Shown here: positions 17,611 to 43,602 of the stretch, one piece after another
How the letters are laid out: each line of letters opens with the position of its first letter
Position numbering within the stretch: the stretch's first letter is position 1
Assembly (NCBI GenBank): GCA_038244455.1
Contig: JBBRTK010000003.1
Coordinates: forward strand, 1 to 43,675
Direction: 5' to 3'
DNA from: Actinomycetota bacterium
GTDB taxonomy: Bacteria; Actinomycetota; UBA4738; HRBIN12
Length of the DNA: 43,675 bases
Made by a program: the position numbers and the translations under genes
The notes under the pieces: generated by a model
Told to the model about the DNA's origin: nothing
Databases searched by the model: none
Seen by the model: only the letters and a program-made list of their open reading frames with translations

Positions 17611-18990
17611 CTAGGTCACAACCAGGGCCGTCACCATCCCGTACATGCCCTCGGGCCCTTCGACGTGGGGCAGGATGTGGCAGTGGAACGCCCACGCTCC
17701 CGGATAGATCGCGTGGACCAGGATGTCGAAGCGTTGCCCCGGGGCGACCACCAGGGTGTCGGCCATGTAGGGCTGCGCCAGCGGATAGCCGTCCTGCGCC
17801 ACCACCTCGAAGTGGTAGCCGTGCAGATGCATCGGGTGCAGGAGGGAACCGTCGTTCGCGATGTGGACCAGCACCCAGTCGCCTCGCTTGGCCGTGAGCG
17901 GCGCTGTGGCCGGAAAGGACTTCCCGTTGATGACGTACCCGAGGGTTCCGTCCCCGAGGAACAACGTGTAGGTGTCGTCGATGCGCGGCACGGTCCCGAG
18001 GGTCATCTGGCCGGTCCGCGGGTTGACGTCGGCCGAGGCATAGGGCCAGGCGTGGTTCGGCGGATCGACGATGATGGCGCCGTACAACCCGGCCCCCACC
18101 TGCTCGGTCGAGTTGAAGTGCGAGTGGTAGACGTACATCCCGGGCGGATCCTTCACGGTGAACTCGTAGGTCCAGTATTGGCCGGGCATGATCGGGTCCT
18201 GCGTGACGTAGGGAACACCGTCCATGGCGTTGGGCACCGTCATCCCGTGCAGGTGAAGCACCGTGGGCTGGTCCAACTGGTTCTGCACCACGATCTTCAC
18301 CTTGTCGCCGTAGGACACGTGGATCTCAGGGCCGGGGACGGTGCCGTTGAACCCCATCGCGTCTACGAACTTCCCCTTTGAAACCTCCCAGCGCACCTTC
18401 TCCGCCGCCAGGTTGAACACCCTGACGCCGTTCTGCATGGTCGGCTTCAGGATCTGACCGCCTGTGGTCGAGGTCTGTCCGCCGGCCAGGAACGCGTCGA
18501 CGCCGGCCTTGTGCATGTCGGCCATCTGCTGGGCGGTCAGGTTGGCCGAGGACATCCCCGTCATGGAACTCCCCGAGGCGGCTGCGCTCCCGGCGTTGAC
18601 CGTTGCGGTCATCCCGAGTTTGTCGTGGCCCGGCACAGTGCAGAGTGCGTCATAGGAACCCGCGGCCAAGGCCGGAACGGAGAGCTGCTGGGTGGCGTTC
18701 GGTTGGATCTCGCCGGTATCGTACGTCTTGTCGCCCACCGTGATGGCGAAGGTGTGGGTGGAGGGGCCGTCGTTCGTTACGGAGAACTCGACGGGCTGGC
18801 CCGCCGCGACGTCGATCTGGCTGGGTTCGATCTTGAAGTCGCTGAGGGTGACCACGGCCTTCGAGGGACCGGCGGCCGCCTGATCACCCGCGCCCGCGGC
18901 GCCCTTCCCGGAGGACCCGGTGCCGCAGGCCGCGCCTATGACCGCCATCACCGCCACAAGAACGAGGATCGTGCTGCGGAACCGTCTCAT
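17611..18990 (-). CDS. Lipoprotein multicopper oxidase with extra N-terminal cupredoxin domain
   Basis: Lipobox GAAC; cupredoxin HTF...CTVPGH...GM; MCO motifs HLHG, YHSH, HPMHLHG, HCHILPH...GM; AAGGAG RBS. Confidence 0.85.
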   Translation of the reverse strand: MRRFRSTILVLVAVMAVIGAACGTGSSGKGAAGAGDQAAAGPSKAVVTLSDFKIEPSQIDVAAGQPVEFSVTNDGPSTHTFAITVGDKTYDTGEIQPNATQQLSVPALAAGSYDALCTVPGHDKLGMTATVNAGSAAASGSSMTGMSSANLTAQQMADMHKAGVDAFLAGGQTSTTGGQILKPTMQNGVRVFNLAAEKVRWEVSKGKFVDAMGFNGTVPGPEIHVSYGDKVKIVVQNQLDQPTVLHLHGMTVPNAMDGVPYVTQDPIMPGQYWTYEFTVKDPPGMYVYHSHFNSTEQVGAGLYGAIIVDPPNHAWPYASADVNPRTGQMTLGTVPRIDDTYTLFLGDGTLGYVINGKSFPATAPLTAKRGDWVLVHIANDGSLLHPMHLHGYHFEVVAQDGYPLAQPYMADTLVVAPGQRFDILVHAIYPGAWAFHCHILPHVEGPEGMYGMVTALVVT

Positions 18991-23820: not shown

Positions 23821-24360
23821 TCAGACGTCTTCGGCGGCGCCGGGTGCCTCCGCAGCCTCGGCCTCGCGGGCGGCCTTGACCGCAGCCTTGTGCGCGAGCC
23901 TCGCCTGGCGACGCAGGGACGCCTCTCGTTGGCGTCGCTTCTCCTTCTCGGACTCCGCGATGAGCGGAGGGACCGGGCGAGGAACGCCGTGTTCGTCAAC
24001 GGCAACGAACACCAGGTAGGCCGAGTTGGCGTGGCGGGAGCTGCCCGAGATGGGGTCGAGCGCGTCCACCCGAACTCCAACCTCCACCGAGGTGCGGCCC
24101 GCGTCGGTAACCGACGCCTTCAGGACCAGGACGTCGCCGATGTGCACGGGCTCCAGGAACGTCATCTCGTCGATGGCGACCGTCACGCACAACCCACCGG
24201 CGTGACGGATGGCGGCGAGACCGGCGGCGGTGTCGACCAGCCGCATGATGGCGCCCCCGTGCACCGTGCCCGCGACGTTGGCGTCGGTCACCTCCATCAT
24301 CTGCGTGAGGGTCACGTGTGAGTCGGCCACGCGCTTGGGGGTGAGGTCCCAGTCGGTCAT
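23821..24360 (-). CDS. Acyl-CoA thioesterase (hotdog fold)
   Basis: DANVAGTVHGG, VTVAIDEMTFLEPVHIGD, GRTSVEVGV, AYLVFVAVD...PRPVPPL. Confidence 0.9.
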   Translation of the reverse strand: MTDWDLTPKRVADSHVTLTQMMEVTDANVAGTVHGGAIMRLVDTAAGLAAIRHAGGLCVTVAIDEMTFLEPVHIGDVLVLKASVTDAGRTSVEVGVRVDALDPISGSSRHANSAYLVFVAVDEHGVPRPVPPLIAESEKEKRRQREASLRRQARLAHKAAVKAAREAEAAEAPGAAEDV

Positions 24361-24421
24361 GCCGGCATCCTATCGGGGCCATCTACCCCGGAGCCGGAGC
24401 GGCCGCCGGTAGCATCACCTC

Positions 24422-25177
24422 GTGCGCACGCTGCGGATCCCGGCCCTCGTCCTGCTCGTGGCGGCGGCAGCGTGCGGGGGCTCGGCTTCCCCGGTCCTCC
24501 CCTCTCCAACCTCCGATGTCACCCGGACGACCACCCCCACCCCCACCTCCACGCCGGCCCCCACCGCGAGCGCGCCCGCGAGCGTGGTGCCCTCCGGCGT
24601 CCCGTCGGGAACACCCGCCGGCTACGCGAAGGACGTCGGCGCCTCGAACCTGCCACCGTCCGCGCTGGTTCCCGGGGGCGTAGGCGTGACCGATGCGTGG
24701 TCCACGACGACGAGCGCCGGGGAGACCGCCGGCGTGGCCTACGCCCTGGCGGGCGACCCGCTCCAGGTTCCCCACGGCCTGGTCATCTGGCGCCGCTCGC
24801 CCGGCGTGGTTCCGCCGTGGAACCCGGTGTTCGGGCTCACGACGGATGCGGGCAGCGGCGTCTTCCAGATCGAAACCCTGCTGGGAGATGCCACCGGAGA
24901 CGGATCGGACGACGCCCTGGTGTTCGAGGCCACCGGCGGCAGCGGTGCGTGCGGCATCACGCTGCTCCTGGATCTGGCCGCGAACGCCCAGGTCTTCCGG
25001 AAGACTGCGTGCGACACCGTGGTGGGCTTCTCCCCAAGCCCCGTGGGCCTGAGCATCCGGCAGGCGGTCTTCGGGCCGTCGGACTCCCATTGCTGTCCCA
25101 GCGCGTTCCGCACCACCGTGCTCACGTACACGGGGACGACGTGGGTCGTCGCGTCCCGAACGAGCTCGCCCGCCTGA
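24422..25177 (+). CDS. Putative lipoprotein with S/T/P-rich linker and Cys-containing globular domain
   Basis: Signal peptide ending AAAAC; TTTPTPTSTP linker; GDATGDGSDD; SHCCPS; TAGCAT -10 6 nt before the GTG. Confidence 0.7.
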   Translation: MRTLRIPALVLLVAAAACGGSASPVLPSPTSDVTRTTTPTPTSTPAPTASAPASVVPSGVPSGTPAGYAKDVGASNLPPSALVPGGVGVTDAWSTTTSAGETAGVAYALAGDPLQVPHGLVIWRRSPGVVPPWNPVFGLTTDAGSGVFQIETLLGDATGDGSDDALVFEATGGSGACGITLLLDLAANAQVFRKTACDTVVGFSPSPVGLSIRQAVFGPSDSHCCPSAFRTTVLTYTGTTWVVASRTSSPA

Positions 25178-25186
25178 GGGGGCGTG

Positions 25187-27469
25187 CTAGATCAGCGTCG
25201 CGATGCTCCGGCGCCGGCTGACCTTCGAGATCTGCACCGCCACCGGGAACTGGTCCTTCACCTGTTCGGCGTGAGTGACCACGAAGAGCTGATGGAAGCG
25301 CGCGGAGAGTCGCCCCATCGCCAGGACCATCAGGTCCTTGCGCTCTTGGTCCAGCGATCCCAGCACCTCGTCCAGCACCAGCATGCCGACATCGGCGCCG
25401 GACACGCGAGACAGGTGCATCGAGATGGCTACGCGGAGCGCCAGGTTCGCCAGATCGGTTTCCGAACCGCTGAAGCGATCGATGTCGTAGTAGGTGTCGC
25501 CGTCGGCGATATGGATGCTCAATGTCTCGTCGTCGATCTTCAGGTCGTCGTACTCGTGGTTCGTGAGCTCGCGGAAGAGCGACTCGGCCTCACGGGAGAG
25601 CTCCGGCCCGACCCGGCCCACCAGGTGATCGCGGAATCCGTCAAGGAGCGTGGCGACGCGGTCACGGTAACGAGCCTCGGAGCGGAGTTCGTCGGCCCGT
25701 GTCGCGGTCTTCTGAGCCTCCTCCAGCGCGCCGTGAAGTCTGGCCAGGTCGGCCTCGGTCCGGGCCCGCAGATCGGTGGCGGCTCGCTCGGCCTCGCGCG
25801 CGGCCGCGAGTGCCGAATCCGCGTTCGCGCGCGCATCGCGCAGGGCGGCGTACACGACGGGGTCGTGGGCGAGGGCAGCAAGCGCCGCCGCTGCGGCGGA
25901 CGTTTCGGCAGCGATCTCTGACGTTCGTTCCTCCGCGGTGGTCAGGTCGGCGGTCAGCTGGTCACGATGCTCGGCCTGTTGGGCCAGGCGCGCCGACTCG
26001 GCGCCGAGCGTTCGTTCGCGTTCGACGCGTTCGGTGAGTTCGGCCGGATCGGGCACTGCGCCGTCGAAGGGTGCGGCGAGCGCGGTCAGCGCGGCGCTGA
26101 GGTCGTCCAGGCGCGTCTGGGCGGCGGCCCGGTCGCGCGCGGCCCGCTCAGCCGTCTGCCCCGCCGTCGCCGCCGTCTTCAGCGCCGCTTCGGCCTTGCC
26201 CAGCGCAGCGCTCGCCGCCTTCTCCGCCCGGGCGGCGGCTGCGGCCTTCGCAGTGGCTTCGGCGGCCTCCTGTTTGCGATGGGCGAGGTATCCGGTGAAG
26301 TCCTTGCCCAGCTCCCGTCCGCACGTGGGGCACGGCTCGGTGGGGTCGGCCTCCTTCGCGCGGGCGAGCCGGTCGGCGGCGCTCGCGGCCAGCTCCGCTA
26401 GCTGTTCGGCGGTGGCGGCGGCGCGGGCGGCTTGCGCGCGGGCATCGTCGGCCGCCGCGGTTGCCACTTCGAGCGCCGCGAGGGACTCCTGGGGATCCGA
26501 GACGGGGAGATCGGCCAGCTGACGCTCGACCACCGCGAGCTCCTCCGCCTTCGTGCGGTAGTTGCGCGCGGCCTGCAACAGCTCCCCGGCGCCGGCGAGC
26601 GAAGCCAGCTCGGCCTGGAGGGCCGGAAGGTGGGCCACCGCATCCGTGGTGACCTCGAGGCGGAGGATGACCTCGGCCTGGTGCGCCTGGAGACGGGTCA
26701 GCTCCCTGCCCAGCCCGTCCAGGCGCACGGTCAAGGTTTCCGCCTGCTGGCGCGCCGCGTCGGCGGCTTCGAACGCTGCCGCGGCGGCCGCGCGGGCCTC
26801 GGTCGCGATCTTGAGCCCGGCGGCCGCGGCCGTGGCGTTCCCAGCGGCCTCGGCGGCAAGGTCCTTCGCCTCCTTGATGTCTGCCTTGAGCTGACTCATG
26901 TCGGCGGCCACCCCCGCCAGCTGGTCGGCCTGCCTGCGCGCCTCGATCCCGTCCTTGCGGGCAACCTTGCGCGCGTCGTCCACCGGCCGGATCCCCAGGA
27001 GCCGAAGGACCATCTCCTTGCGCTTGCCCGCCGTCACGTCGGAGAACGCGTCCAGCTGCTTTTGTTCGGCGAACACGCTTGCGCGGAAGACCTGTCGATC
27101 CATCCGGAGCAGCCGCGCGATCTCGGCGTCCACGTCGCTCACGCCCGACGCCAACTGCAACGAACCCACGAGCAGCTCGGCGTCGGTGGCATGGTTCTTC
27201 CCTTTGATCGAACGCCGGACCTCGTAGGTACTGCCGCCGTGTTCGAAGATCATCCGGAGTTCGCAATCCGCAAGGAGCCCGTTCGTTCGGATCTGGTCCT
27301 TCTTCGTGCGGGCCGCGTCGATGCCGTAGAGCGAGACGGCGATGGCCTCCATCAGCGTCGACTTCCCCGAACCGTTCGGCCCCACGACGCCGATAACCCT
27401 GGCCGGCAGCTCCAGGTCCAGCTCCTCGAACTGCCGGTAGTTCCGCAGGCTGAGCTCGACGACCCTCAC
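25187..27469 (-). CDS. rad50: Rad50/SbcC-family SMC-like ATPase (760 aa)
   Basis: LRNYRQF, Walker A GPNGSGKS, Q-loop FAEQK, CPTCG zinc hook at residue ~380 (the midpoint), signature FSGSE, Walker B/D-loop LVLDEVLGSLD, VVTH; GTGA overlap with mre11. Confidence 0.9.
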   Translation of the reverse strand: MRVVELSLRNYRQFEELDLELPARVIGVVGPNGSGKSTLMEAIAVSLYGIDAARTKKDQIRTNGLLADCELRMIFEHGGSTYEVRRSIKGKNHATDAELLVGSLQLASGVSDVDAEIARLLRMDRQVFRASVFAEQKQLDAFSDVTAGKRKEMVLRLLGIRPVDDARKVARKDGIEARRQADQLAGVAADMSQLKADIKEAKDLAAEAAGNATAAAAGLKIATEARAAAAAAFEAADAARQQAETLTVRLDGLGRELTRLQAHQAEVILRLEVTTDAVAHLPALQAELASLAGAGELLQAARNYRTKAEELAVVERQLADLPVSDPQESLAALEVATAAADDARAQAARAAATAEQLAELAASAADRLARAKEADPTEPCPTCGRELGKDFTGYLAHRKQEAAEATAKAAAAARAEKAASAALGKAEAALKTAATAGQTAERAARDRAAAQTRLDDLSAALTALAAPFDGAVPDPAELTERVERERTLGAESARLAQQAEHRDQLTADLTTAEERTSEIAAETSAAAAALAALAHDPVVYAALRDARANADSALAAAREAERAATDLRARTEADLARLHGALEEAQKTATRADELRSEARYRDRVATLLDGFRDHLVGRVGPELSREAESLFRELTNHEYDDLKIDDETLSIHIADGDTYYDIDRFSGSETDLANLALRVAISMHLSRVSGADVGMLVLDEVLGSLDQERKDLMVLAMGRLSARFHQLFVVTHAEQVKDQFPVAVQISKVSRRRSIATLI

Positions 27470-28605
27470 ACGGTCTCCCCCTGCGCGGACTCCAGGTAGC
27501 GTGCGCCGAGATCGACAACACGATCGCGTTCCAGCCCCGAGAGGTCCTGGGTGGCAACGAACGTCGACCATTCGCTCGACAGCGAACCGATCTGGGGCGC
27601 CCCCTGGACGGCGTAGGACTCGGCACCGACGTCTGGCTCGATCTGGACGTGGAGCGCGCCGGGGACCGCCTCCTGGAACTCTTCGTTCCGCACCTGCCGG
27701 AAGGCTGCGGAGTCCACGTGCTCCAGGAAGACCCGGACCACCGAACCCTCGGGCGACCCCTTCGCGGCTCGTTCGACCGCATCGACCAGCTCACCGGGAC
27801 CTAGGCCCGAGGACTCCACGCTGAGCGTCACCAGCGGGCGCTCGCCGGGGTTCTCGATCTGCTCCACCGTGCCGGCGTCCGTGTCGATGATGACGAGCCC
27901 CTTGGGGCCCGCATCCGCCGGCTTGTCGGCGAACGAGAACGAGTCCGTGGAACCGGCGTACCAGGTTCGCTTCGATGCCTTCTGGAACACGTGGTAGTGC
28001 CCCAGCACCACCAGATCGAACCGCTTGTCGAACGCCCCCTCCTCGATCTCCAGCTCGTTGATGTCGCGCCCGTAGGCACTGACCGGCAGTGATGTGAGCG
28101 CCACGTGAGCGATGAGGAGATCGGTCGCATCCCCGCCCGCCGCCCCGGCCGCCACCTCCAGCTCGGCCCGGAACTCGTCCACGCCCAGGGTTTGCGGAAC
28201 GGCGTGCACCTTCACCCCCGCCAGCTCGGCGCTCCGCGCCTGCATCGACCACGCGAACTCCACGTTGGAGAAGACCTCCTCGAGCGCGGCGTAGGGCGAA
28301 CCCGTCCCCCGCACGCGCGGGGTGTCGTGGTTCCCGCTGATGCTCACGCCGCGCAGGCCCGCCGCGTTCAGGTTCTTCAGCCCCACGAGCACCTTCCCGA
28401 ACGTGCGATAGGTCGGCCGCGCGTGATCGAAGATGTCCCCGAGCCAGATGAACCCGTCGGGCTCCTGCGCGATGGTCTCCTGCACCGCCCAGGCGAAGGA
28501 CCGCAGGAAGTCCTCCTCGCGCGTGTTCCGGCCCTGTTCGTCCCGCAGGTGTGCCAGGTGCGTCCGCCCCAGGTGGGCGTCGCCGAGGGCGACCAGGCGC
28601 GCCAC
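27466..28605 (-). CDS. mre11: Mre11/SbcD-family metallophosphoesterase nuclease
   Basis: Motifs GDAHLG, GDIFD, SGNHD, LIAH, LGHYH, WYAGS; directly upstream of the Rad50-like gene. Confidence 0.9.
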   Translation of the reverse strand: MARLVALGDAHLGRTHLAHLRDEQGRNTREEDFLRSFAWAVQETIAQEPDGFIWLGDIFDHARPTYRTFGKVLVGLKNLNAAGLRGVSISGNHDTPRVRGTGSPYAALEEVFSNVEFAWSMQARSAELAGVKVHAVPQTLGVDEFRAELEVAAGAAGGDATDLLIAHVALTSLPVSAYGRDINELEIEEGAFDKRFDLVVLGHYHVFQKASKRTWYAGSTDSFSFADKPADAGPKGLVIIDTDAGTVEQIENPGERPLVTLSVESSGLGPGELVDAVERAAKGSPEGSVVRVFLEHVDSAAFRQVRNEEFQEAVPGALHVQIEPDVGAESYAVQGAPQIGSLSSEWSTFVATQDLSGLERDRVVDLGARYLESAQGETV

Positions 28606-30173
28606 TACTCGGCGAACCCCTTCGATCGTCCTTCGGGGACGGGCGGCAGCGGCGAGGGCCCCTTCACCGTCTTCAGGTGATCCTCGTAGAGATAGACCTG
28701 CGCCGGCAGCGCGAACGGCGCCTCCAGGTTCGTGATGATGGCCTCCCCGGGCATCAGCGTCTGGATCTCGGGCCCCAGGTCGGAGATGTCCTGCTTGGAG
28801 GATCCCCGCAGGATGTTGCGGTCCTTCTCATCGGCCAGCCCCAGGATGAAGAACGTGTTGAACTGGCTCAGGAGTTCGTCGTCGATGAGCTTGGGCTGCT
28901 GGCTGACCGCGCAGAGCCCGACCTTGAACTTCCGGCCCTCGCGGGCGACGCGGGGGAACACGTTCTCGTCCCCGCGTTGCACCCTGGACAGCACGCGCTG
29001 GGCCTCCTCGAGCGCGATCAGCGTTGGCGGCAGCGCTGCGAACGCCGCGCGGTCCTCCAGGAAGATCTGCCCGTAGGTGTCCAAGACCCGCCGGGTGATC
29101 ACCGAAGCCACGAGGATCTCCTCCATCGAGGAGAGCCCGCTGGTGTCCACCAGCACGGAGAGCCCGTTCATGAGTTCGTCGACGATGCGCGCGGACAGCG
29201 AGGGCTGGGACGGATCGCGGCTGATGCACGGCATGTCCAATATCCGCTGCGCGCGGCGTTGGATGACCTGCAACGTGCTGGAGGCAACGCCCAGCTCCTC
29301 GGCGAACTTCGGCACGTCGTCCTCCTCGCCCACGCGCGAGATCCATTCGTCGCCGTAGAAGCGGATGAGGCGATAGATCGCGTCCTCCTGCGCGTGGCTC
29401 CACTGATACGCGGTCTGCAGGTCCCCCAGCGTGAGCTCACCCAGGGAAAGCCGGAGCCCGGTGGCACCGGCGCCCGCCGCGCGCGTCGCGTAGACCTTCA
29501 GCCGGTCGGCCGCCCACGGATGGTCGCGCAGCCCCTTGCGAAGTCCGCTCCCCCCTTCCAGGTACTCCCCGTGCGGATCGAACAACAGACAGGCGTACCG
29601 GCCCGAGGAGGCCAGGACCTGCCCGGCGAGCACCTTCATGAGGTTGGACTTGCCCATGCCGGTGGTGGCGAAGACACCGACGTGACTGACCAGGGTCTCT
29701 CCCTTGATCCCCACCTCCAGATCGATCACGTCCTCACCGGAGCGGAGCTTGCCGATCCGGATATCCCCCATCTGTTCGGCCAGGAACGCGAAATCCTCCG
29801 GGCCGGGCGCCGTCACGCGCGCGAACTGCGCCGGAAGCGATTTCGGCTTACGGAACGCACCCGAGGTCCCGTCGATGTAGCCGAGCGGCTGACACTTCGC
29901 GACCTTGTACAGGCGCTGCTCAGGATCGTACAGCTCATACGGCGACTCGGCCCGGTCACCCGCCATGTAGGCGCCGGCGGTTCGTTCGGCCCAGGCGGGA
30001 TCGCTCGAATCCGACCCGTACGTCACGTCGATCGCCCGGAACAGGAAGCGGCGACCCCGCTCGGCGTCCTCCGCCACCAGCAGCTCGCCCAGGAACAGAT
30101 CCGTGCCGTAGTAGGCGCGGAACTGTGCTTCCAGCACGCTCTTGCCGAAGATCCGGCCTTTGTCCACGCTCAT
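28605..30173 (-). CDS. herA: HerA-family ATPase/helicase (HAS barrel + DUF87)
   Basis: N-terminal beta-barrel-like segment; HVGVFATTGMGKS Walker A, FDPHGEY, Walker B IALEEAQ, AREGRKFKVGLCAVSQQP, SQFNT. Confidence 0.88.
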   Translation of the reverse strand: MSVDKGRIFGKSVLEAQFRAYYGTDLFLGELLVAEDAERGRRFLFRAIDVTYGSDSSDPAWAERTAGAYMAGDRAESPYELYDPEQRLYKVAKCQPLGYIDGTSGAFRKPKSLPAQFARVTAPGPEDFAFLAEQMGDIRIGKLRSGEDVIDLEVGIKGETLVSHVGVFATTGMGKSNLMKVLAGQVLASSGRYACLLFDPHGEYLEGGSGLRKGLRDHPWAADRLKVYATRAAGAGATGLRLSLGELTLGDLQTAYQWSHAQEDAIYRLIRFYGDEWISRVGEEDDVPKFAEELGVASSTLQVIQRRAQRILDMPCISRDPSQPSLSARIVDELMNGLSVLVDTSGLSSMEEILVASVITRRVLDTYGQIFLEDRAAFAALPPTLIALEEAQRVLSRVQRGDENVFPRVAREGRKFKVGLCAVSQQPKLIDDELLSQFNTFFILGLADEKDRNILRGSSKQDISDLGPEIQTLMPGEAIITNLEAPFALPAQVYLYEDHLKTVKGPSPLPPVPEGRSKGFAE

Positions 30174-30175
30174 GG

Positions 30176-31252
30176 TCAGCTCCGATTCAAGATCTCGTGG
30201 AAGTCCTGGAACAGGACCTCGATGTCATCCTCGTGCATGCCTTCGCGCGTGAGCGCTTCGCGGAACGCGCGGCGCACATCCGCCACCGCGTAGCCGGTGA
30301 CGCGCGCAGCCTGATGGGCCCGCGCCAGCGGGTACGGATACCCGACGAACGCAGGATCCCCGGCGAGCCCCGCCAACCGGGAAAGGACCTCGCCGGGCTC
30401 CCCCGGCCCGCGCGCGATGTCCACACGGAACGCGTGCGCGGCGGTGGGCGCCAGGTGCGCGATGAAGATCTCCCCGACGTAGAGCCGGCCGAACACGGGA
30501 TCGGTGGAGATCCGGGCGGCCCAGCGGGAAGGCCCGACCTCGCGGTCGGCGCGGCGTTTGAGCAACGTGACCAACGGCGCGTTGCGTCCCCAGAACAGGG
30601 TGGAGGCCTTCACCACGCCAGCCAGGTGGACGCCGCGGGCCACCGCCGTCTCATGTGCCCGCCGCACCACCTCCGGGGGCACCAAGGGCCCCCCGTGCAA
30701 CGAGCCGTCGACCAGGACCAGGTCGCCGGACGCAGCCTCGTCGATGGTTCGGATGGTGGCCTTCCATTCCGCCCATCCCCGCAGCGCGTCGACCGGACGG
30801 GTTAGTTCCGGTAGCTGTCCGGGTTCTTCGCCGGTGAGTTCGCGCAGCGCCTCGCGCGCCAGGTCCGCAACCTCGTGCCGGGACACCGCCCGGATCTCGA
30901 GGGCGGGCGATTCGACCAGGTCGGTGGCGCCGCCCGCGAATCGCACCCTGGCCACCCGGAAAGCCGCCACCTGGAAGGAGCGAGCGTCGGCCACCAGGCA
31001 CGAACCGCCGTCCACCGCCCACACGACGCCGGGGTCTTCGACGGGCACCGGCTCGATACCGAACGCGTCCGGGTGGCCCGGGACCACCACGTCTTCTCCC
31101 AGTTCGAGCTGCCCGTCCACGATCCGGATGTCGCCTCCGGGGTCGCGCAACAGGTCCACCACGAAGGCTGCAGCCTGATTCAGCTGATCCCCGCGAACCC
31201 GGTCGGCGCCGACCAGACGGTCGGCCTCCACGGGGTCCAGCGCGCTCGACAT
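30176..31252 (-). CDS. nurA: NurA-family 5'-3' nuclease
   Basis: VWAVDGGS, LVLVDGSL, GVVKAST and GYPYPLARAH motifs; immediately upstream of herA. Confidence 0.85.
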   Translation of the reverse strand: MSSALDPVEADRLVGADRVRGDQLNQAAAFVVDLLRDPGGDIRIVDGQLELGEDVVVPGHPDAFGIEPVPVEDPGVVWAVDGGSCLVADARSFQVAAFRVARVRFAGGATDLVESPALEIRAVSRHEVADLAREALRELTGEEPGQLPELTRPVDALRGWAEWKATIRTIDEAASGDLVLVDGSLHGGPLVPPEVVRRAHETAVARGVHLAGVVKASTLFWGRNAPLVTLLKRRADREVGPSRWAARISTDPVFGRLYVGEIFIAHLAPTAAHAFRVDIARGPGEPGEVLSRLAGLAGDPAFVGYPYPLARAHQAARVTGYAVADVRRAFREALTREGMHEDDIEVLFQDFHEILNRS

Positions 31253-31258
31253 GGGCGA

Positions 31259-31280
31259 AGGATACCCACCCTCGCCGACG
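31259..31280 (-). promoter_or_regulatory. PafBC/RecA-NDp-type promoter for a leaderless nurA operon
   Basis: Minus strand reads CGTCGG-cgagggtggg(N10)-TATCCT-6 nt-ATG, versus consensus TGTCGG-N10-TANNNT (one mismatch). Confidence 0.6.
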
Positions 31281-31308
31281 TGATCCCAAGGCCATGAGCC
31301 GTTCGGAC

Positions 31309-31344
31309 CAGTCCCTCTTGACTAGAAGCAGTCCCCAGGGACTG
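31309..31344. repeat. CAGTCCC direct repeat plus inverted repeat CAGTCCC-CA-GGGACTG
   Basis: CAGTCCC at 31309-31315 and 31329-31335; its reverse complement GGGACTG at 31338-31344. Confidence 0.55.
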
Positions 31345-31370
31345 AAGGTTCGGCGGGTAGATGCCGATAG
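31343..31370 (+). promoter_or_regulatory. sigma28 (FliA/WhiG)-like promoter
   Basis: TGAA-N16-GCCGATAG versus consensus TAAA-N15/16-GCCGATAA, 47 nt before the RBS-preceded ATG at 31418. Confidence 0.5.
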
Positions 31371-31417
31371 GCAGGGGATAGAACGGGATCAGCGGTCAAG
31401 GACAAGAGGGGGATCTC

Positions 31418-34400
31418 ATGAGCCGGCCGAGGAACGCTTCACGCATCGCGCGCGTACCGTTGTTCGCGCTGGTCGTGCTGCTCGCCGGCGGCTCGATCGG
31501 TTCGATCGTGATGGCCGGCCGCGCTCGCGCCCACGCACAAGAGGCGATGGTCACCCAGGCCCGATCCGCCGTTGAGAACACGCTGTCCAGCATCTTCAGC
31601 GACAACGACCTGAGGACCATGTCCTCGCCCACGCGCGCCGCCACGCTGAACACCGAACTCTCCGTGGCGCTGGGCGCAACAGCCGTCTCCGACGTGACCC
31701 TCTACAGCTCGATGGGCGCGATCTTGTACGACATCCAGAACTCACGCATCGGCAACAAGCTCCTGGGCGAGCGGCTCGCGATCAAAACCGCCACCCACGG
31801 CGGCGCGGTCCCGACAATCGTCGGCACCGACCTCACCGTGATGCTCCCGATCCAGCGGTTCGGCACCCTGGGCGCGGTCATGCTGACGATGCCGCAGGCG
31901 CCGATCGATGCTGCGGGCCGCCCATGGACGGCGGCCGGGCTGATCATGGCGCTCTGCATCCTGCCGGCGCTGTTCATGCTGTGGTGGGTCGGACGCATCG
32001 CGGCCGCCTCGGGCGCGAACATCAGCTTCCGCCTCCAGCAGATGACCTCGGCTCCCTCGCGCCGGGAACAGACGCGTCCGTCCCCTGCCCCGGCGATGCA
32101 GCATGGGTTGAAGGAGGAAGGCGACGCGCGGAGGATGTCAGAGGAACGCGCCCGGGCCGCAGAGGAGCGCTTGAGCGTGCTCCAGGAGCAGTACCGCAAG
32201 ACCCTTGCCGACCTGCATGCCTCGAAGGAAACGCCACCACCGGCAACGGGGAGCAAGGCGCTCGAGGAACGCGCGCTCCAGGCCGAGGGGAAGCTCCGCC
32301 TCTTGGAGGGGCAGCTTCGCGCGGTCAGCGACGAACGCGACAAGATGGAGGAAGAGCTCCGCCTCACTCCCGCCGCCGCACCCGGAGAACCCGACCCGCG
32401 ACTGAAGACGGAGTACGAACGGATGGAAACCGAACTGGTCGGCGTTCGAGCGGAGCTGGAGGGAACGCAGACCGAACTCTCAGCCGCCAACCGAGAGCTC
32501 ACCGACCTGCTCTCCACGGTGGGCCGCGCTGAAGGGGACAAGGCCGACCGGATCCGCGACCTCGAGCAGGACCTGGATGCGGCACATGTGCAGATCCTGA
32601 CCACCCAGGAAGCGCTCGAGGCGGCGCGCGCCGAAGCCGACCAGGTCCAAGGACGAGCGGGGTCGGCGCAGACCGAGCTGGGATCGTTGCGTGAGGCCCA
32701 CGACCAGGCTGTCCGAGACAGGGACGCCGCCATCCTCTCCTCCCGCGAAGAGTCAGAGAGCCTGCACCGCGAACTGGATGCGCTGAGCGCGAGCGCCGGG
32801 GGAGAAACCGAAGCGGTTCGCGCACAAGCCGCGGAGGCCCGAGCGGCGCTCACGGCCCAAACCGAACGCATCCGGGAACTGCAGCAGCAGCTGGATGCCG
32901 CGCGGTCGGAGATCCTTCGCGCCGAGGAGACGGGCAACGCCGCCGGCGCGCACGCGGAAACCACCCGCACCGAGCTCGAGGCAACCCGCAAAGAGCTGCG
33001 CGCCCTGCGGAACGAAGAGCAGCGCGCGGCGATGCTGGAGGACGAGCTGCGCGCCACCCGCGCCGAGCTCGAGAACACCCAGGCTTCTCAATTGGCCGAA
33101 CTCGCGGAGCGAGACGCGGATCTCGAGGGCCGGGTTCGCCGGACCCGAGAGGAGTTCCAGGCCGTGATCGGTGAGAGGGACGTGCAGTTCGCCGCCAGCC
33201 AGAACGAACTCGGGTCGGCCCGGTCCGAACTGGGCCAGATCCGTATGGAGGCCTCCGCTGCGGCGAACGAGGCCCAAGCCCAGACCGCGCGCGCCGATGA
33301 TCTGGCCGGGCAAGCCGAGCGAGCCGAACGCGAGCTCCACGCGCAGCAGACCGTAGTCCGCAAGACCGCCGCCGACCTCCAGGAGGCCGTGGAAGCCAAC
33401 GCGGACCTGGCGCGCAAGCTCCAGGATCTGGAGAACCGCCGTCAGCTCGAGCTCGCCGACGAAGAGGGTCATCTGAAGATGGACCAGATCCTCTACGCCA
33501 CGCAGGAGCGCCTGGCCGGACAGACCGAACGGCTCATCGAGACGGAGGAACGCGCCCACGAAGCGGAGCGCTCGGTGGAGATCCTGAACGAGCGTCTGGA
33601 CGAGACGCTGTCGCAGCTGCGCGCCCTGCAGATGGCCGATGCGCTCCGCGACCTGCGGGGCGAGGAGCACGCCCAGCACGAGGCAGCCGCGGAGGCAGGC
33701 GCCATTGAGGATGAGGTGGTCCGACTCGAAGACCGCCGAGCGTCCTCGCCCTTCCTGAAGGAACTCACGCTGGATGCAAGGAAGTCGCTCACGCAGATCC
33801 TGGGGATCACGCAGATCCTGAAGTTCAAGAAGGATGCGAAGGACCAGGCGCAGCTGGTGAAGCAGCTCACGGCCTATGCGCGGCGCCTGGACCTGACCGT
33901 GAGCGATCTGGCCGACGCCGACAAGCTTGCACGCGGTTCGGTCGAACTCACGGTTCGCCGGACAGACCTGGAAGCCTTGGTCCAGCGCGTCGTCGAGGAA
34001 TCCGACGTGAGCGCGGACCACGACGTCCGCGTGGTCACGGAATCGGTGGTGTGCGGGGTGGATCAGCTGCGCACGGAGCAGGCGCTCGCCGGGCTCCTGC
34101 GTTCGAGCGCGGATCGCACACCCCAGGGAAAGTCCATCCTGGTCACGCTTCAGCAGGTCGAAGGTGGCGCGCTGATCTCCGTCGGCGACCCGGAGCCGTC
34201 CTCGGACGGCTCGCTGTCGCCGGTGGTCAGGCGATTCGCAGAGATCCAGGGCGGATGGGCCAAGGTGGATACGCGCGAGGACGGAACCGGTTCGATGTTC
34301 CGGATCTTCCTCCCCGACGGTGGGAGCAACAGCGCCGGGGCCGACCTTCGGATCGTCGTCAACGACGCCGGCCAAGGCGACTCGGAGGATGCCCCCTGGA

Positions 34401-34459
34401 ACGATGACGATCAGGACATGTTGGTCCGGGAGATCGGCCGTCTGGCGGAGCCGAGCTAG
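31418..34459 (+). CDS. Membrane-anchored long coiled-coil protein with degenerate histidine kinase (HisKA/HATPase) C-terminus
   Basis: Two TM helices flank a ~140-aa extracytoplasmic domain; ~550 aa of E/A/R/L/Q-rich heptads; C-terminal FLKELTLDARKSLTQILG...TDLEALVQRVVEE...EQALAGLLRSSADRTP...ISVGD...QGGWAKV...GSMFRIFLP. Confidence 0.8.
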   Translation: MSRPRNASRIARVPLFALVVLLAGGSIGSIVMAGRARAHAQEAMVTQARSAVENTLSSIFSDNDLRTMSSPTRAATLNTELSVALGATAVSDVTLYSSMGAILYDIQNSRIGNKLLGERLAIKTATHGGAVPTIVGTDLTVMLPIQRFGTLGAVMLTMPQAPIDAAGRPWTAAGLIMALCILPALFMLWWVGRIAAASGANISFRLQQMTSAPSRREQTRPSPAPAMQHGLKEEGDARRMSEERARAAEERLSVLQEQYRKTLADLHASKETPPPATGSKALEERALQAEGKLRLLEGQLRAVSDERDKMEEELRLTPAAAPGEPDPRLKTEYERMETELVGVRAELEGTQTELSAANRELTDLLSTVGRAEGDKADRIRDLEQDLDAAHVQILTTQEALEAARAEADQVQGRAGSAQTELGSLREAHDQAVRDRDAAILSSREESESLHRELDALSASAGGETEAVRAQAAEARAALTAQTERIRELQQQLDAARSEILRAEETGNAAGAHAETTRTELEATRKELRALRNEEQRAAMLEDELRATRAELENTQASQLAELAERDADLEGRVRRTREEFQAVIGERDVQFAASQNELGSARSELGQIRMEASAAANEAQAQTARADDLAGQAERAERELHAQQTVVRKTAADLQEAVEANADLARKLQDLENRRQLELADEEGHLKMDQILYATQERLAGQTERLIETEERAHEAERSVEILNERLDETLSQLRALQMADALRDLRGEEHAQHEAAAEAGAIEDEVVRLEDRRASSPFLKELTLDARKSLTQILGITQILKFKKDAKDQAQLVKQLTAYARRLDLTVSDLADADKLARGSVELTVRRTDLEALVQRVVEESDVSADHDVRVVTESVVCGVDQLRTEQALAGLLRSSADRTPQGKSILVTLQQVEGGALISVGDPEPSSDGSLSPVVRRFAEIQGGWAKVDTREDGTGSMFRIFLPDGGSNSAGADLRIVVNDAGQGDSEDAPWNDDDQDMLVREIGRLAEPS

Positions 34460-42626: not shown

Positions 42627-43574
42627 CTATCCGGCAGGAAGTTCAGCCGAGGGGCAGATGGTGGCTCGCGGGCACCAGCCGCAATACCGGCCAGGCGTGA
42701 GTTCGGGTTCGCGGCCGGCAAAGAGAGCGGCGGCGGCCCGAACGGCGGCCGTCACCCGGTCCGCAGCGCGGAACAGAGTCTCTTCGGTGACGTCCTCGGA
42801 CTGCCATTCGCCGCTCTCCAGGAAGAGCGAACCCACCCGGAACGGGGGCACACCGAACCGGAGCGTCAGGAGCAGCGCGTAGAACCGGTTGTCCTCCACA
42901 TGCTCCGGGTAGGCACCGCCCGTCTTGAGGTCGAGCGCGAGCCGGGTGGCCCGCATGGGATCGGTCCGGTCCTGGATCCCGAGCACCAGGTCCATCCGTC
43001 CGGACAAGACCAGTTCGCCGCCGGAGAGTTCCGCGCGCGATGACAGCTCGGCGACCGGCGCCAGCTCGCGACGCAGTTCTCGCAGCGGTGGGAACGTCCC
43101 CTGGAACTGGGTGACGCGCCGGACGGCCTCCGCGACGACCTCGTCCTGACCCGGCGGCGTCAGCGCGCCCCAATACTCGGCGAATCGTTCCTCTTTGGTG
43201 ACCAATCGCTCGACCGCGAGGTCCACGGTCTGCGCGGGACCGAGGGGTTCACGGGCGCCGACCTCGACCTCGATGGCCTTGTGTTGGAGCACTCCGGCCG
43301 CGGTGGACACGGAGTGCTCGAACGGTTCGGACTCGCCCAGGAGCCGCGCGGTGAACATGCCCTGGCACTGGGTGAGCGCCGAGAGTTTCGCCTTGCTAAG
43401 CCAGAGCTGCTCAACCAGTTCGACCCCTCGGACGGCCTCCTCGATCCGGTCACGGAGGCGTTGGGGCAGATCCGCCGGGAACAGAGGCCGCTGCTGCCCC
43501 GCTCCCAGGAGGTGCTCCATGGTCCGGCGCTGGGGGTCCGTGAGCGGCATGGGCGGGGGCTGTGTGATCTCCAT
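42627..43574 (-). CDS. PD-(D/E)XK superfamily nuclease with probable 4Fe-4S staple (RecB/AddB/Cas4-like)
   Basis: LSGRMDLV (motif II), LDLKTG (motif III), DNRFYAL (QxxxY-like); one N-terminal Cys (TQCQG) plus C-terminal CGWCPRATIC. Confidence 0.82.
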   Translation of the reverse strand: MEITQPPPMPLTDPQRRTMEHLLGAGQQRPLFPADLPQRLRDRIEEAVRGVELVEQLWLSKAKLSALTQCQGMFTARLLGESEPFEHSVSTAAGVLQHKAIEVEVGAREPLGPAQTVDLAVERLVTKEERFAEYWGALTPPGQDEVVAEAVRRVTQFQGTFPPLRELRRELAPVAELSSRAELSGGELVLSGRMDLVLGIQDRTDPMRATRLALDLKTGGAYPEHVEDNRFYALLLTLRFGVPPFRVGSLFLESGEWQSEDVTEETLFRAADRVTAAVRAAAALFAGREPELTPGRYCGWCPRATICPSAELPAG

Positions 43575-43580
43575 GGCAGG

Positions 43581-43602
43581 ATGGTAGGCGGAGATACCGA
43601 CA
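43581..43602 (-). promoter_or_regulatory. PafBC/RecA-NDp-type promoter for the leaderless nuclease gene
   Basis: Minus strand reads TGTCGG-tatctccgcc(N10)-TACCAT-6 nt-ATG, an exact match to TGTCGG-N10-TANNNT. Confidence 0.75.

Follow-up and report, generated by a model that had tools for sequence, protein, structure and literature searches.

A likely PafBC-dependent promoter element precedes an archaeal-type nurA-herA-mre11-rad50 operon in an uncultured actinomycete

To our knowledge, PafBC binding has been demonstrated only in mycobacteria, which are also the only bacteria in which the PafBC regulon has been defined by experiment. The mycobacterial regulon already includes end-resection complexes. 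Damage-induced defence systems and restriction modules resembling NurA and HerA, such as TdpAB, exist as well. The in vivo PafBC consensus is given as tGTCgg(N10)tA(N3)T, where lower case marks bases with conservation of 50% or less, and the upstream element sits at -23 to -28 (PMC8635444, cited in part). According to the same part of that source, PafB specifically reads only the GTC of the hexamer, with R46 and R50 recognising both of its G:C pairs, while PafC contacts domain 4 of SigA and thereby stands in for the -35 contact; specific binding by the mycobacterial proteins required RNA polymerase and ssDNA (PMC8635444). Accepted members of the M. smegmatis PafBC regulon include sbcD and adnAB (PMC11348249, in part), and dual control of recA by LexA and PafBC has been described for mycobacteria (PMC8223512, in part). 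Among defence-related systems, TdpAB belongs to the tdpABC phosphorothioation system (PMC12914056, in part), and in Moraxellaceae a damage-response activator also controls defence genes (PMC12392091, in part). A full-text literature search returned no paper joining PafBC with NurA (supplementary regulon tables of the primary studies lay outside its scope), and searches on HerA and NurA with actinobacterial DNA damage, or with Mycobacterium, Rad50 and Mre11, returned archaeal or unrelated papers only.

The window analysed here, by which we mean the whole stretch of 43,675 nucleotides, contains a promoter of this geometry on the minus strand directly 5′ of nurA. Read in the direction of transcription, CGTCGG (31280-31275) is followed by a 10-nt spacer (31274-31265), the hexamer TATCCT (31264-31259), a 6-nt gap (31258-31253) and an ATG (31252-31250). 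The original prediction had described this locus as CGTCGG-N10-TATCCT-N6-ATG, and every coordinate of that description matches the sequence. With the A of the ATG as +1, the PafBC-type -26 element CGTCGG occupies -28 to -23, its GTC triplet corresponds to 31279-31277, and the -10 hexamer, which has the TANNNT form of SigA promoters, occupies -12 to -7. No start codon of the 358-aa ORF lies 5′ of this ATG, which has no Shine-Dalgarno sequence upstream of it. From this layout, transcription and translation of nurA are both predicted to start at the A of the ATG, which would make the mRNA leaderless. No -35 element is present before nurA; the position at a 17-nt spacing holds GGGATC, which agrees with TTGACA at 2 of 6 bases, and a sigma-70 scan of 24000-31600 returned 0 sites. 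The SOS box GAAC-N4-GTTC does not occur in the nurA upstream region (31253-31417), and in the whole window it has three matches, at 17846, 34809 and 36112. The first base of the nurA hexamer is C where the canonical TGTCGG has T. We expect this base to be tolerated because position 1 of the consensus is weakly conserved (50% or less) and PafB reads the GTC alone (PMC8635444, in part). Considering the layout together with the evidence presented below, it is highly likely that these 22 nt form a hybrid promoter of the RecA-NDp type, which depends on PafBC and combines a -26 with a -10 element, and that they drive leaderless transcription of nurA-herA-mre11-rad50.

An imperfect inverted repeat (31309-31344; 15-nt arms, 80% complementarity, 6-nt loop) lies 30-65 nt upstream of the -26 element, between nurA and a divergent gene for a secreted protein of 1013 aa (31418-34459, plus strand). 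Pieces of the repeat (GACTGGTCCGAAC) recur in relatives of the same genus. The repeat could be an operator or could form part of the divergent promoter.

A PafBC-type promoter presupposes the activator, and the genome encodes a candidate pair. The assembly comprises 2.72 Mb in 350 contigs (67.5% GC, 92% complete, 4% estimated contamination), with the window as contig C3. Two tandem WYL genes on contig C12 are the sole WYL-domain matches in the assembly, and they lie in a Pup-proteasome locus with the order dop-prcB-prcA-pafA-...-pafB-pafC-...-tatC-helicase. The first matches M. smegmatis PafB (7p5x_AY, E 2.4e-36) and has identical residues at the positions of R46, R50, K52 and R56 in the alignment, so that the DNA-reading arginines are kept; the second matches PafC (7p5x_AX, E 5e-43). 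PafB was also present in all five relatives tested. As two of the five are genomes in a single contig with a nurA gene of their own, a binning error that joined the window to pafBC is no longer a concern.

Given this pair, we scanned the genome for the motif and used the other 21 spacings within N4-N25 as controls. TGTCGG-N10-TANNNT occurs at 19 sites, against a mean of 2.3 (range 0-4) at the control spacings. The peak thus falls at exactly N10, and PafBC-type sites stand before recA, uvrA, uvrD, an AdnAB-like gene and radA. CGTCGG-N10-TANNNT, the form found at nurA, occurs at 16 sites against a mean of 5.5 and a maximum of 10; CGTCGG-N9-TANNNT also reaches 10 copies. The hexamer CGTCGG is about three times commoner in the genome than TGTCGG (6086 versus 2120 copies), so about a third of the CGTCGG-N10-TANNNT sites are expected by chance. 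The signal sharpens for sites with leaderless geometry, defined as a start codon 6-9 nt past the -10 hexamer followed by a long ORF of high GC3: TGTCGG at N10 is found seven times in this setting (mean 0.19 at the other 21 spacings) and CGTCGG five times (mean 0.14). When candidate leaderless promoters were filtered more strictly, leaving 368, NGTCNN stood at N10 in 20 cases, compared with 4-7 at other spacings, and NGTCRG in 13, compared with 0-2 elsewhere. The stricter filter required an upstream in-frame stop or low GC3; it excluded polA, holB and dnaB and left one CGTCGG site.

The genes behind these sites include core damage-response genes of the genome. First ORFs behind the 19 TGTCGG sites that relate to DNA encode RecA, UvrA, a UvrD helicase, an AdnAB-like protein (UvrD plus PD-(D/E)XK), DNA polymerase III delta (holA), RmuC, a RecN-like SMC protein, the PD-(D/E)XK nuclease of the window and a DUF6504 protein. 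Regulators and small proteins account for five more (two ribbon-helix-helix proteins, a Crp-like regulator, a ThiS-like protein and DZR_2), and at two sites the ORF, for FtsH or DUF192, begins 81-89 nt downstream. The remaining three precede an ORF with no Pfam match, a contig-end fragment and no ORF, respectively. The five leaderless CGTCGG sites precede nurA, polA (DNA polymerase I), a holB-like gene (delta′-like), dnaB and a gene for a protein of no known family. The dnaB gene behind its CGTCGG-type site (contig C156, 425-2755) contains an intein, within which lies a homing-endonuclease domain of the LAGLIDADG type. Behind TGTCAG sites lie a RadA-like gene, a ComM-like gene, ssb (SSB) and a LysM gene beside lexA, and a second UvrD helicase gene follows a single GGTCGG site. 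The remaining relaxed matches include sites before housekeeping genes (folP-like, CTP synthase, GatC, PPK2) and are probably chance background. Upstream of recA (contig C11, 18221-18303), an SOS box (CGAACAGGTGTTCG, 18221) lies 61 nt upstream of a PafBC-type site, TGTCGG-N10-TAGCGT (18282), which is the arrangement described for mycobacterial recA (PMC8223512, in part).

Within the window itself, GTCGG-N10-TANNNT has two matches on both strands together, the nurA site and 43581-43601, and the bare GTC-N12-TANNNT finds the same two sites, against 3.69 expected. The second site is canonical (TGTCGG-N10-TACCAT-N6-ATG, 43581-43602, minus strand) and lies 73 nt from the contig end. Behind it is a gene for a PD-(D/E)XK nuclease of 315 aa (42630-43574, minus strand; Pfam PDDEXK_1, E 1.2e-12). 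This nuclease also has a weak match to the PADLOC DruK model (E 2.2e-08). The claim that the hexamer is absent from the other promoters of the window and is confined to two DNA-processing loci is therefore borne out by the two-strand search. In shuffled sequence, the mean number of GTCGG-N10-TANNNT matches was 0.52, and 9 of 100 shuffles gave two or more, so the motif count inside the window is no more than chance. The significance of the element consequently comes solely from the genome-wide and orthologue tests.

For the orthologue test, one genome per species was scanned, which gave 77 loci, all from metagenome-assembled genomes of uncultured Actinomycetota or Actinomycetes and most with NurA matches of 60-97% identity. 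Seven lacked the N-terminus or a match, leaving 70 usable. NGTCNN-N10-TANNNT followed by a start after 5-9 nt is present in 66 of the 70 orthologous nurA promoters; at spacings of 6-9 and 11-14 the same pattern is found in 0-3 of 70. This count is frame-free, as requiring an in-frame start missed 14 of the 70 sites through offsets in the N-terminal alignment. The 66 sites comprise 48 distinct 22-mers, in which the spacer sequence varies freely while its length is fixed at 10. Of these 48, 25 have T as the first base of the hexamer, 19 have C, and A and G occur twice each; at the fifth base, G (32 sites) outnumbers C (10) and A (6). The T, A and final T of the -10 hexamer are invariant. Same-genus relatives (86% protein identity) have TGTCGG and TGTCAG, and a relative at 97% has CGTCCG. 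Since the genomes are kin, the counts overstate independence, and the diversity of the spacers is the better argument. The conservation of the motif upstream of nurA orthologues that the original prediction called for is thus present, at a spacing of exactly ten. The SOS box GAAC-N4-GTTC was found in 0 of the 70 nurA promoters of this order.

The nurA -10 hexamer is tighter than TANNNT demands: in 48 of 48 distinct sites (loci L060-L135) the fifth base of the nurA -10 hexamer is C, and in 44 of 48 a G stands two bases 5′ of this hexamer. The -10 hexamers of other PafBC-type sites in the genome (TAGGAT, TAGCGT, TACCAT) do not follow this nurA-type constraint. The element is missing in four of the 70 loci (L073, L075, L091 and L135). 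L073 and L075 have kept TATCCT, with AGGGCC or GGGGCC in place of the hexamer, and carry a palindrome, TCGACC-N-GGTCGA, about 40 nt upstream, which may be the site of a replacement regulator.

The element heads four ORFs that lie on one strand, adjacent or overlapping, in the order nurA-herA-mre11-rad50. NurA (358 aa, 30176-31252, minus strand) scores 29.7 bits with the Pfam NurA model, against a cut-off of 21. Searched against solved structures, the NurA alignment gave a non-significant NurA match only (2ygk, E 0.11), so the fold search settled its identity: the best Foldseek matches of the AlphaFold model (mean pLDDT 79) are all NurA structures, namely 2ygk (E 4.8e-10), 8wfd_G (8.5e-10), 9x1n_G, 3tal and 7f6d_G. 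The start of herA (522 aa, 28605-30173, minus strand; Pfam DUF87/HerA, E 3.4e-24) overlaps the nurA stop, and among NCBIfam models its product scores better with the archaeal double-strand-break repair model (E 7.4e-27) than with the anti-phage HerA model (8.5e-15), all below the equivalog cut-offs. The mre11/sbcD-like phosphoesterase (379 aa, 27466-28605, minus strand; Pfam Metallophos) matches Mre11_Sulfo (E 2.9e-14) and sbcd (E 3.3e-12) with scores short of the respective cut-offs. The rad50/sbcC-like SMC ATPase (Pfam AAA_23 and SMC_N) is listed as an ORF of 794 aa (25187-27571, minus strand), but its true start is probably near 27469, because position 2 of the profile aligns to residue 36; it matches the NCBIfam Rad50 model with E 2.3e-38, again below the cut-off. 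With scores beneath the equivalog cut-offs, HerA, Mre11 and Rad50 can be assigned at the family level only.

We also examined the operon in more distant lineages. The NurA subfamily is present in 37 of 401 genomes sampled across the phylum, including 21 of 21 in a family with about 74% GC, here called f14; this tally and one of 16 of 41 among relatives take in one unpublished genome (G029), on which no reported count or sequence depends. In f14 the order nurA-herA-mre11-rad50 was found in 2 of 3 loci examined. A GAAC-N4-GTTC SOS box, with eight different N4 sequences, is present in 17 of 20 f14 nurA loci, between -55 and +12 of the projected NurA start. The remaining three (L141, L149, L159) have TGTC[CG][GT]-N10-TAGACT instead of the SOS box. 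All four f14 genomes tested have a lexA gene, as does the genome of the window. By sequence, then, the operon is linked to a DNA-damage regulon in two lineages through two different regulators.

The f14 promoters show further features. Across the f14 nurA loci (L137-L151, L163-L166), the SOS box follows directly on a -10-like hexamer, TTACGCT, in 17 of 20, and about 40 nt further upstream lies a conserved TACACT-N6-7-TGCTTCCCCT block, which may be a second promoter. In six loci (L137, L139, L140, L147, L148, L150), TGTC[TCG][GC]-N10-TANNNT-N7-GTG occurs about 470-516 nt upstream of nurA, where it heads a leaderless gene just 5′ of nurA on the same strand; ORF calls, available for L167 alone, give the gene 125 aa there. 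Signals of both the PafBC and the LexA type may therefore be present in the f14 neighbourhood. In distant NurA loci (27-45% identity), an in-frame leaderless GTC site directly at the gene was not found, and the seven low-GC or more distant loci L152-L158 lacked PafBC-type sites and SOS boxes alike over the 200 nt examined (for L156, over 55 nt of upstream sequence).

Two explanations would deny PafBC a role at nurA. The element might be an ordinary leaderless SigA promoter in a GC-rich genome, with a CGTCGG that happens to lie ten bases before the -10 hexamer. The window statistics agree with this (two matches against 0.52 expected, reached by 9 of 100 shuffles), as do the sheer abundance of CGTCGG, with its 6086 copies, and the ten copies at N9. 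Against chance of this kind, however, stand the five leaderless CGTCGG sites at N10 where a mean of 0.14 was seen elsewhere, four of them before genes that act on DNA, and a GTC held at the exact spacing in 66 of 70 orthologues while the spacer around it diverges, and we regard a fortuitous match as very improbable. It is almost as hard to believe, if marginally less so, that the conserved GTC element is genuine but recognised by another activator, or by a sigma factor with an unusual upstream element. The nurA -10 hexamers are indeed tighter than those of PafBC sites in general, with their C at the fifth base in 48 of 48, and the inverted repeat at 31309-31344, 30-65 nt upstream, could serve some other protein. 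Yet elsewhere in the genome the motif stands before classic members of the PafBC regulon (recA, uvrA, uvrD, radA, the AdnAB-like gene and the LysM neighbour of lexA), PafB retains the arginines that read GTC, the assembly, 92% complete, yielded no WYL-domain protein besides PafB and PafC, and the geometry is that of the published -26/-10 arrangement (PMC8635444, in part). The proposal that the operon is wired into the PafBC regulon of its host is accordingly supported by the pafBC pair, the enrichment at N10 and the conservation in orthologues, with the caveat that the hexamer is CGTCGG and not TGTCGG.

A different objection accepts the PafBC-dependent promoter and holds that the operon, or its NurA-HerA half, serves defence against phage or foreign DNA, with damage induction as an alarm. 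In the fold search, TdpB of TdpAB ranks second among the matches of the NurA model (8wfd_G, E 8.5e-10); HerA and the SMC-like ATPase match the PADLOC models HerA, LmuB, mad3 and PtuA, which are generic ATPases; damage-linked control of defence genes is reported in Moraxellaceae (PMC12392091, in part); and nurA is patchy among relatives (16 of 41 genomes). Against these points, NurA and the Mre11-like protein have no PADLOC match at all, no described system in PADLOC-DB 2.0 has all of its components matched by the operon, and HerA, Mre11 and Rad50 score highest on archaeal double-strand-break repair models. The order nurA-herA-mre11-rad50 is kept in 40 of 40 loci with full flanks, most of which retain the same acyl-CoA dehydrogenase neighbourhood, and this stability indicates that the operon is not a mobile island. 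In addition, the distant family f14 has the same operon under a LexA SOS box, and in M. smegmatis sbcD is accepted as part of the PafBC regulon (PMC11348249, in part). We therefore consider a defence role unlikely, albeit less so than either of the explanations that leave PafBC out. The original prediction had argued for DNA repair rather than anti-phage defence; repair is made likelier by the f14 SOS box and the stable synteny but is not proven, as restriction modules with NurA- and HerA-like proteins exist.

Returning to the PafBC-dependent promoter, we propose a mechanism borrowed from the mycobacterial system. After damage, ssDNA would activate the PafB-PafC heterodimer, the helix-turn-helix domain of PafB would read the GTC triplet at -27 to -25, and PafC would touch domain 4 of SigA in place of the absent -35 contact (“sigma adaptation”). 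RNA polymerase would then open TATCCT and initiate at the A of the nurA ATG. On this model the operon would be silent or expressed at a low level without damage and would be induced by damage alongside recA, uvrA, uvrD, the AdnAB-like gene and radA, and co-induction with those repair genes would fit a role in double-strand end processing. The model predicts that mitomycin C or a fluoroquinolone induces the operon in a manner dependent on the GTC and on PafBC. More broadly, we lean towards the hypothesis that NurA-HerA-Mre11-Rad50 of Actinomycetota is a damage-induced machine for processing double-strand ends whose damage control has been rewired between lineages, with PafBC activation here, LexA repression in f14 and a TGTC-type site in three f14 genomes. 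If true, such rewiring would be regulatory evidence, independent of biochemistry, that bacterial NurA-HerA linked to Mre11-Rad50 acts in repair rather than defence.

Compared with the known systems, the nurA promoter most resembles the mycobacterial RecA-NDp promoters (M. smegmatis and M. tuberculosis, for example at recA), with which it shares the GTC hexamer at -28 to -23, the N10 spacer, TANNNT and the lack of a -35 element. The setting is also shared, as the pafBC pair lies in a Pup-proteasome locus and the co-regulated genes act in repair. It differs from the mycobacterial promoters in the C for T at the first base and in its host, an uncultured actinomycete with a 2.7-Mb genome, and from the mycobacterial regulon in that the operon downstream includes nurA and herA. 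The site is very probably not a new kind of element but adds an archaeal-type end-processing operon to the known PafBC regulon. The PafBC promoter code would thus transfer to an uncultured actinobacterial order and take in nurA-herA-mre11-rad50 there. Because the first base of the -26 element is hardly constrained (25 T and 19 C among 48 distinct nurA sites), scans that demand TGTCGG miss members of the regulon.

The operon itself resembles the archaeal herA-mre11-rad50-nurA double-strand-break resection operon and the bacterial HerA-NurA of Deinococcus radiodurans (PDB 7f6d): the four protein families are shared, the predicted model confirms a NurA fold, and the HerA, Mre11 and Rad50 profiles come closest to archaeal repair models. 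It departs from the archaeal operon in that nurA comes first, NurA has 14% identity to 2ygk, the NCBIfam equivalog scores fall below cut-off, and a bacterial damage activator appears to have been placed over the genes. TdpAB (PDB 8wfd) likewise pairs a NurA-like fold with a HerA-like ATPase. The operon described here differs in its Mre11 and Rad50 and in its stable chromosomal setting, and neither a tdpC-like gene nor a modification gene was identified next to it. The operon of f14 (about 74% GC) shares the gene order nurA-herA-mre11-rad50 and has a link of its own to a DNA-damage regulon, there by predicted LexA repression at GAAC-N4-GTTC (17 of 20 loci) and here by predicted PafBC activation. 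The same operon under two damage regulators in two lineages bears on whether bacterial NurA-HerA acts in repair or in defence.
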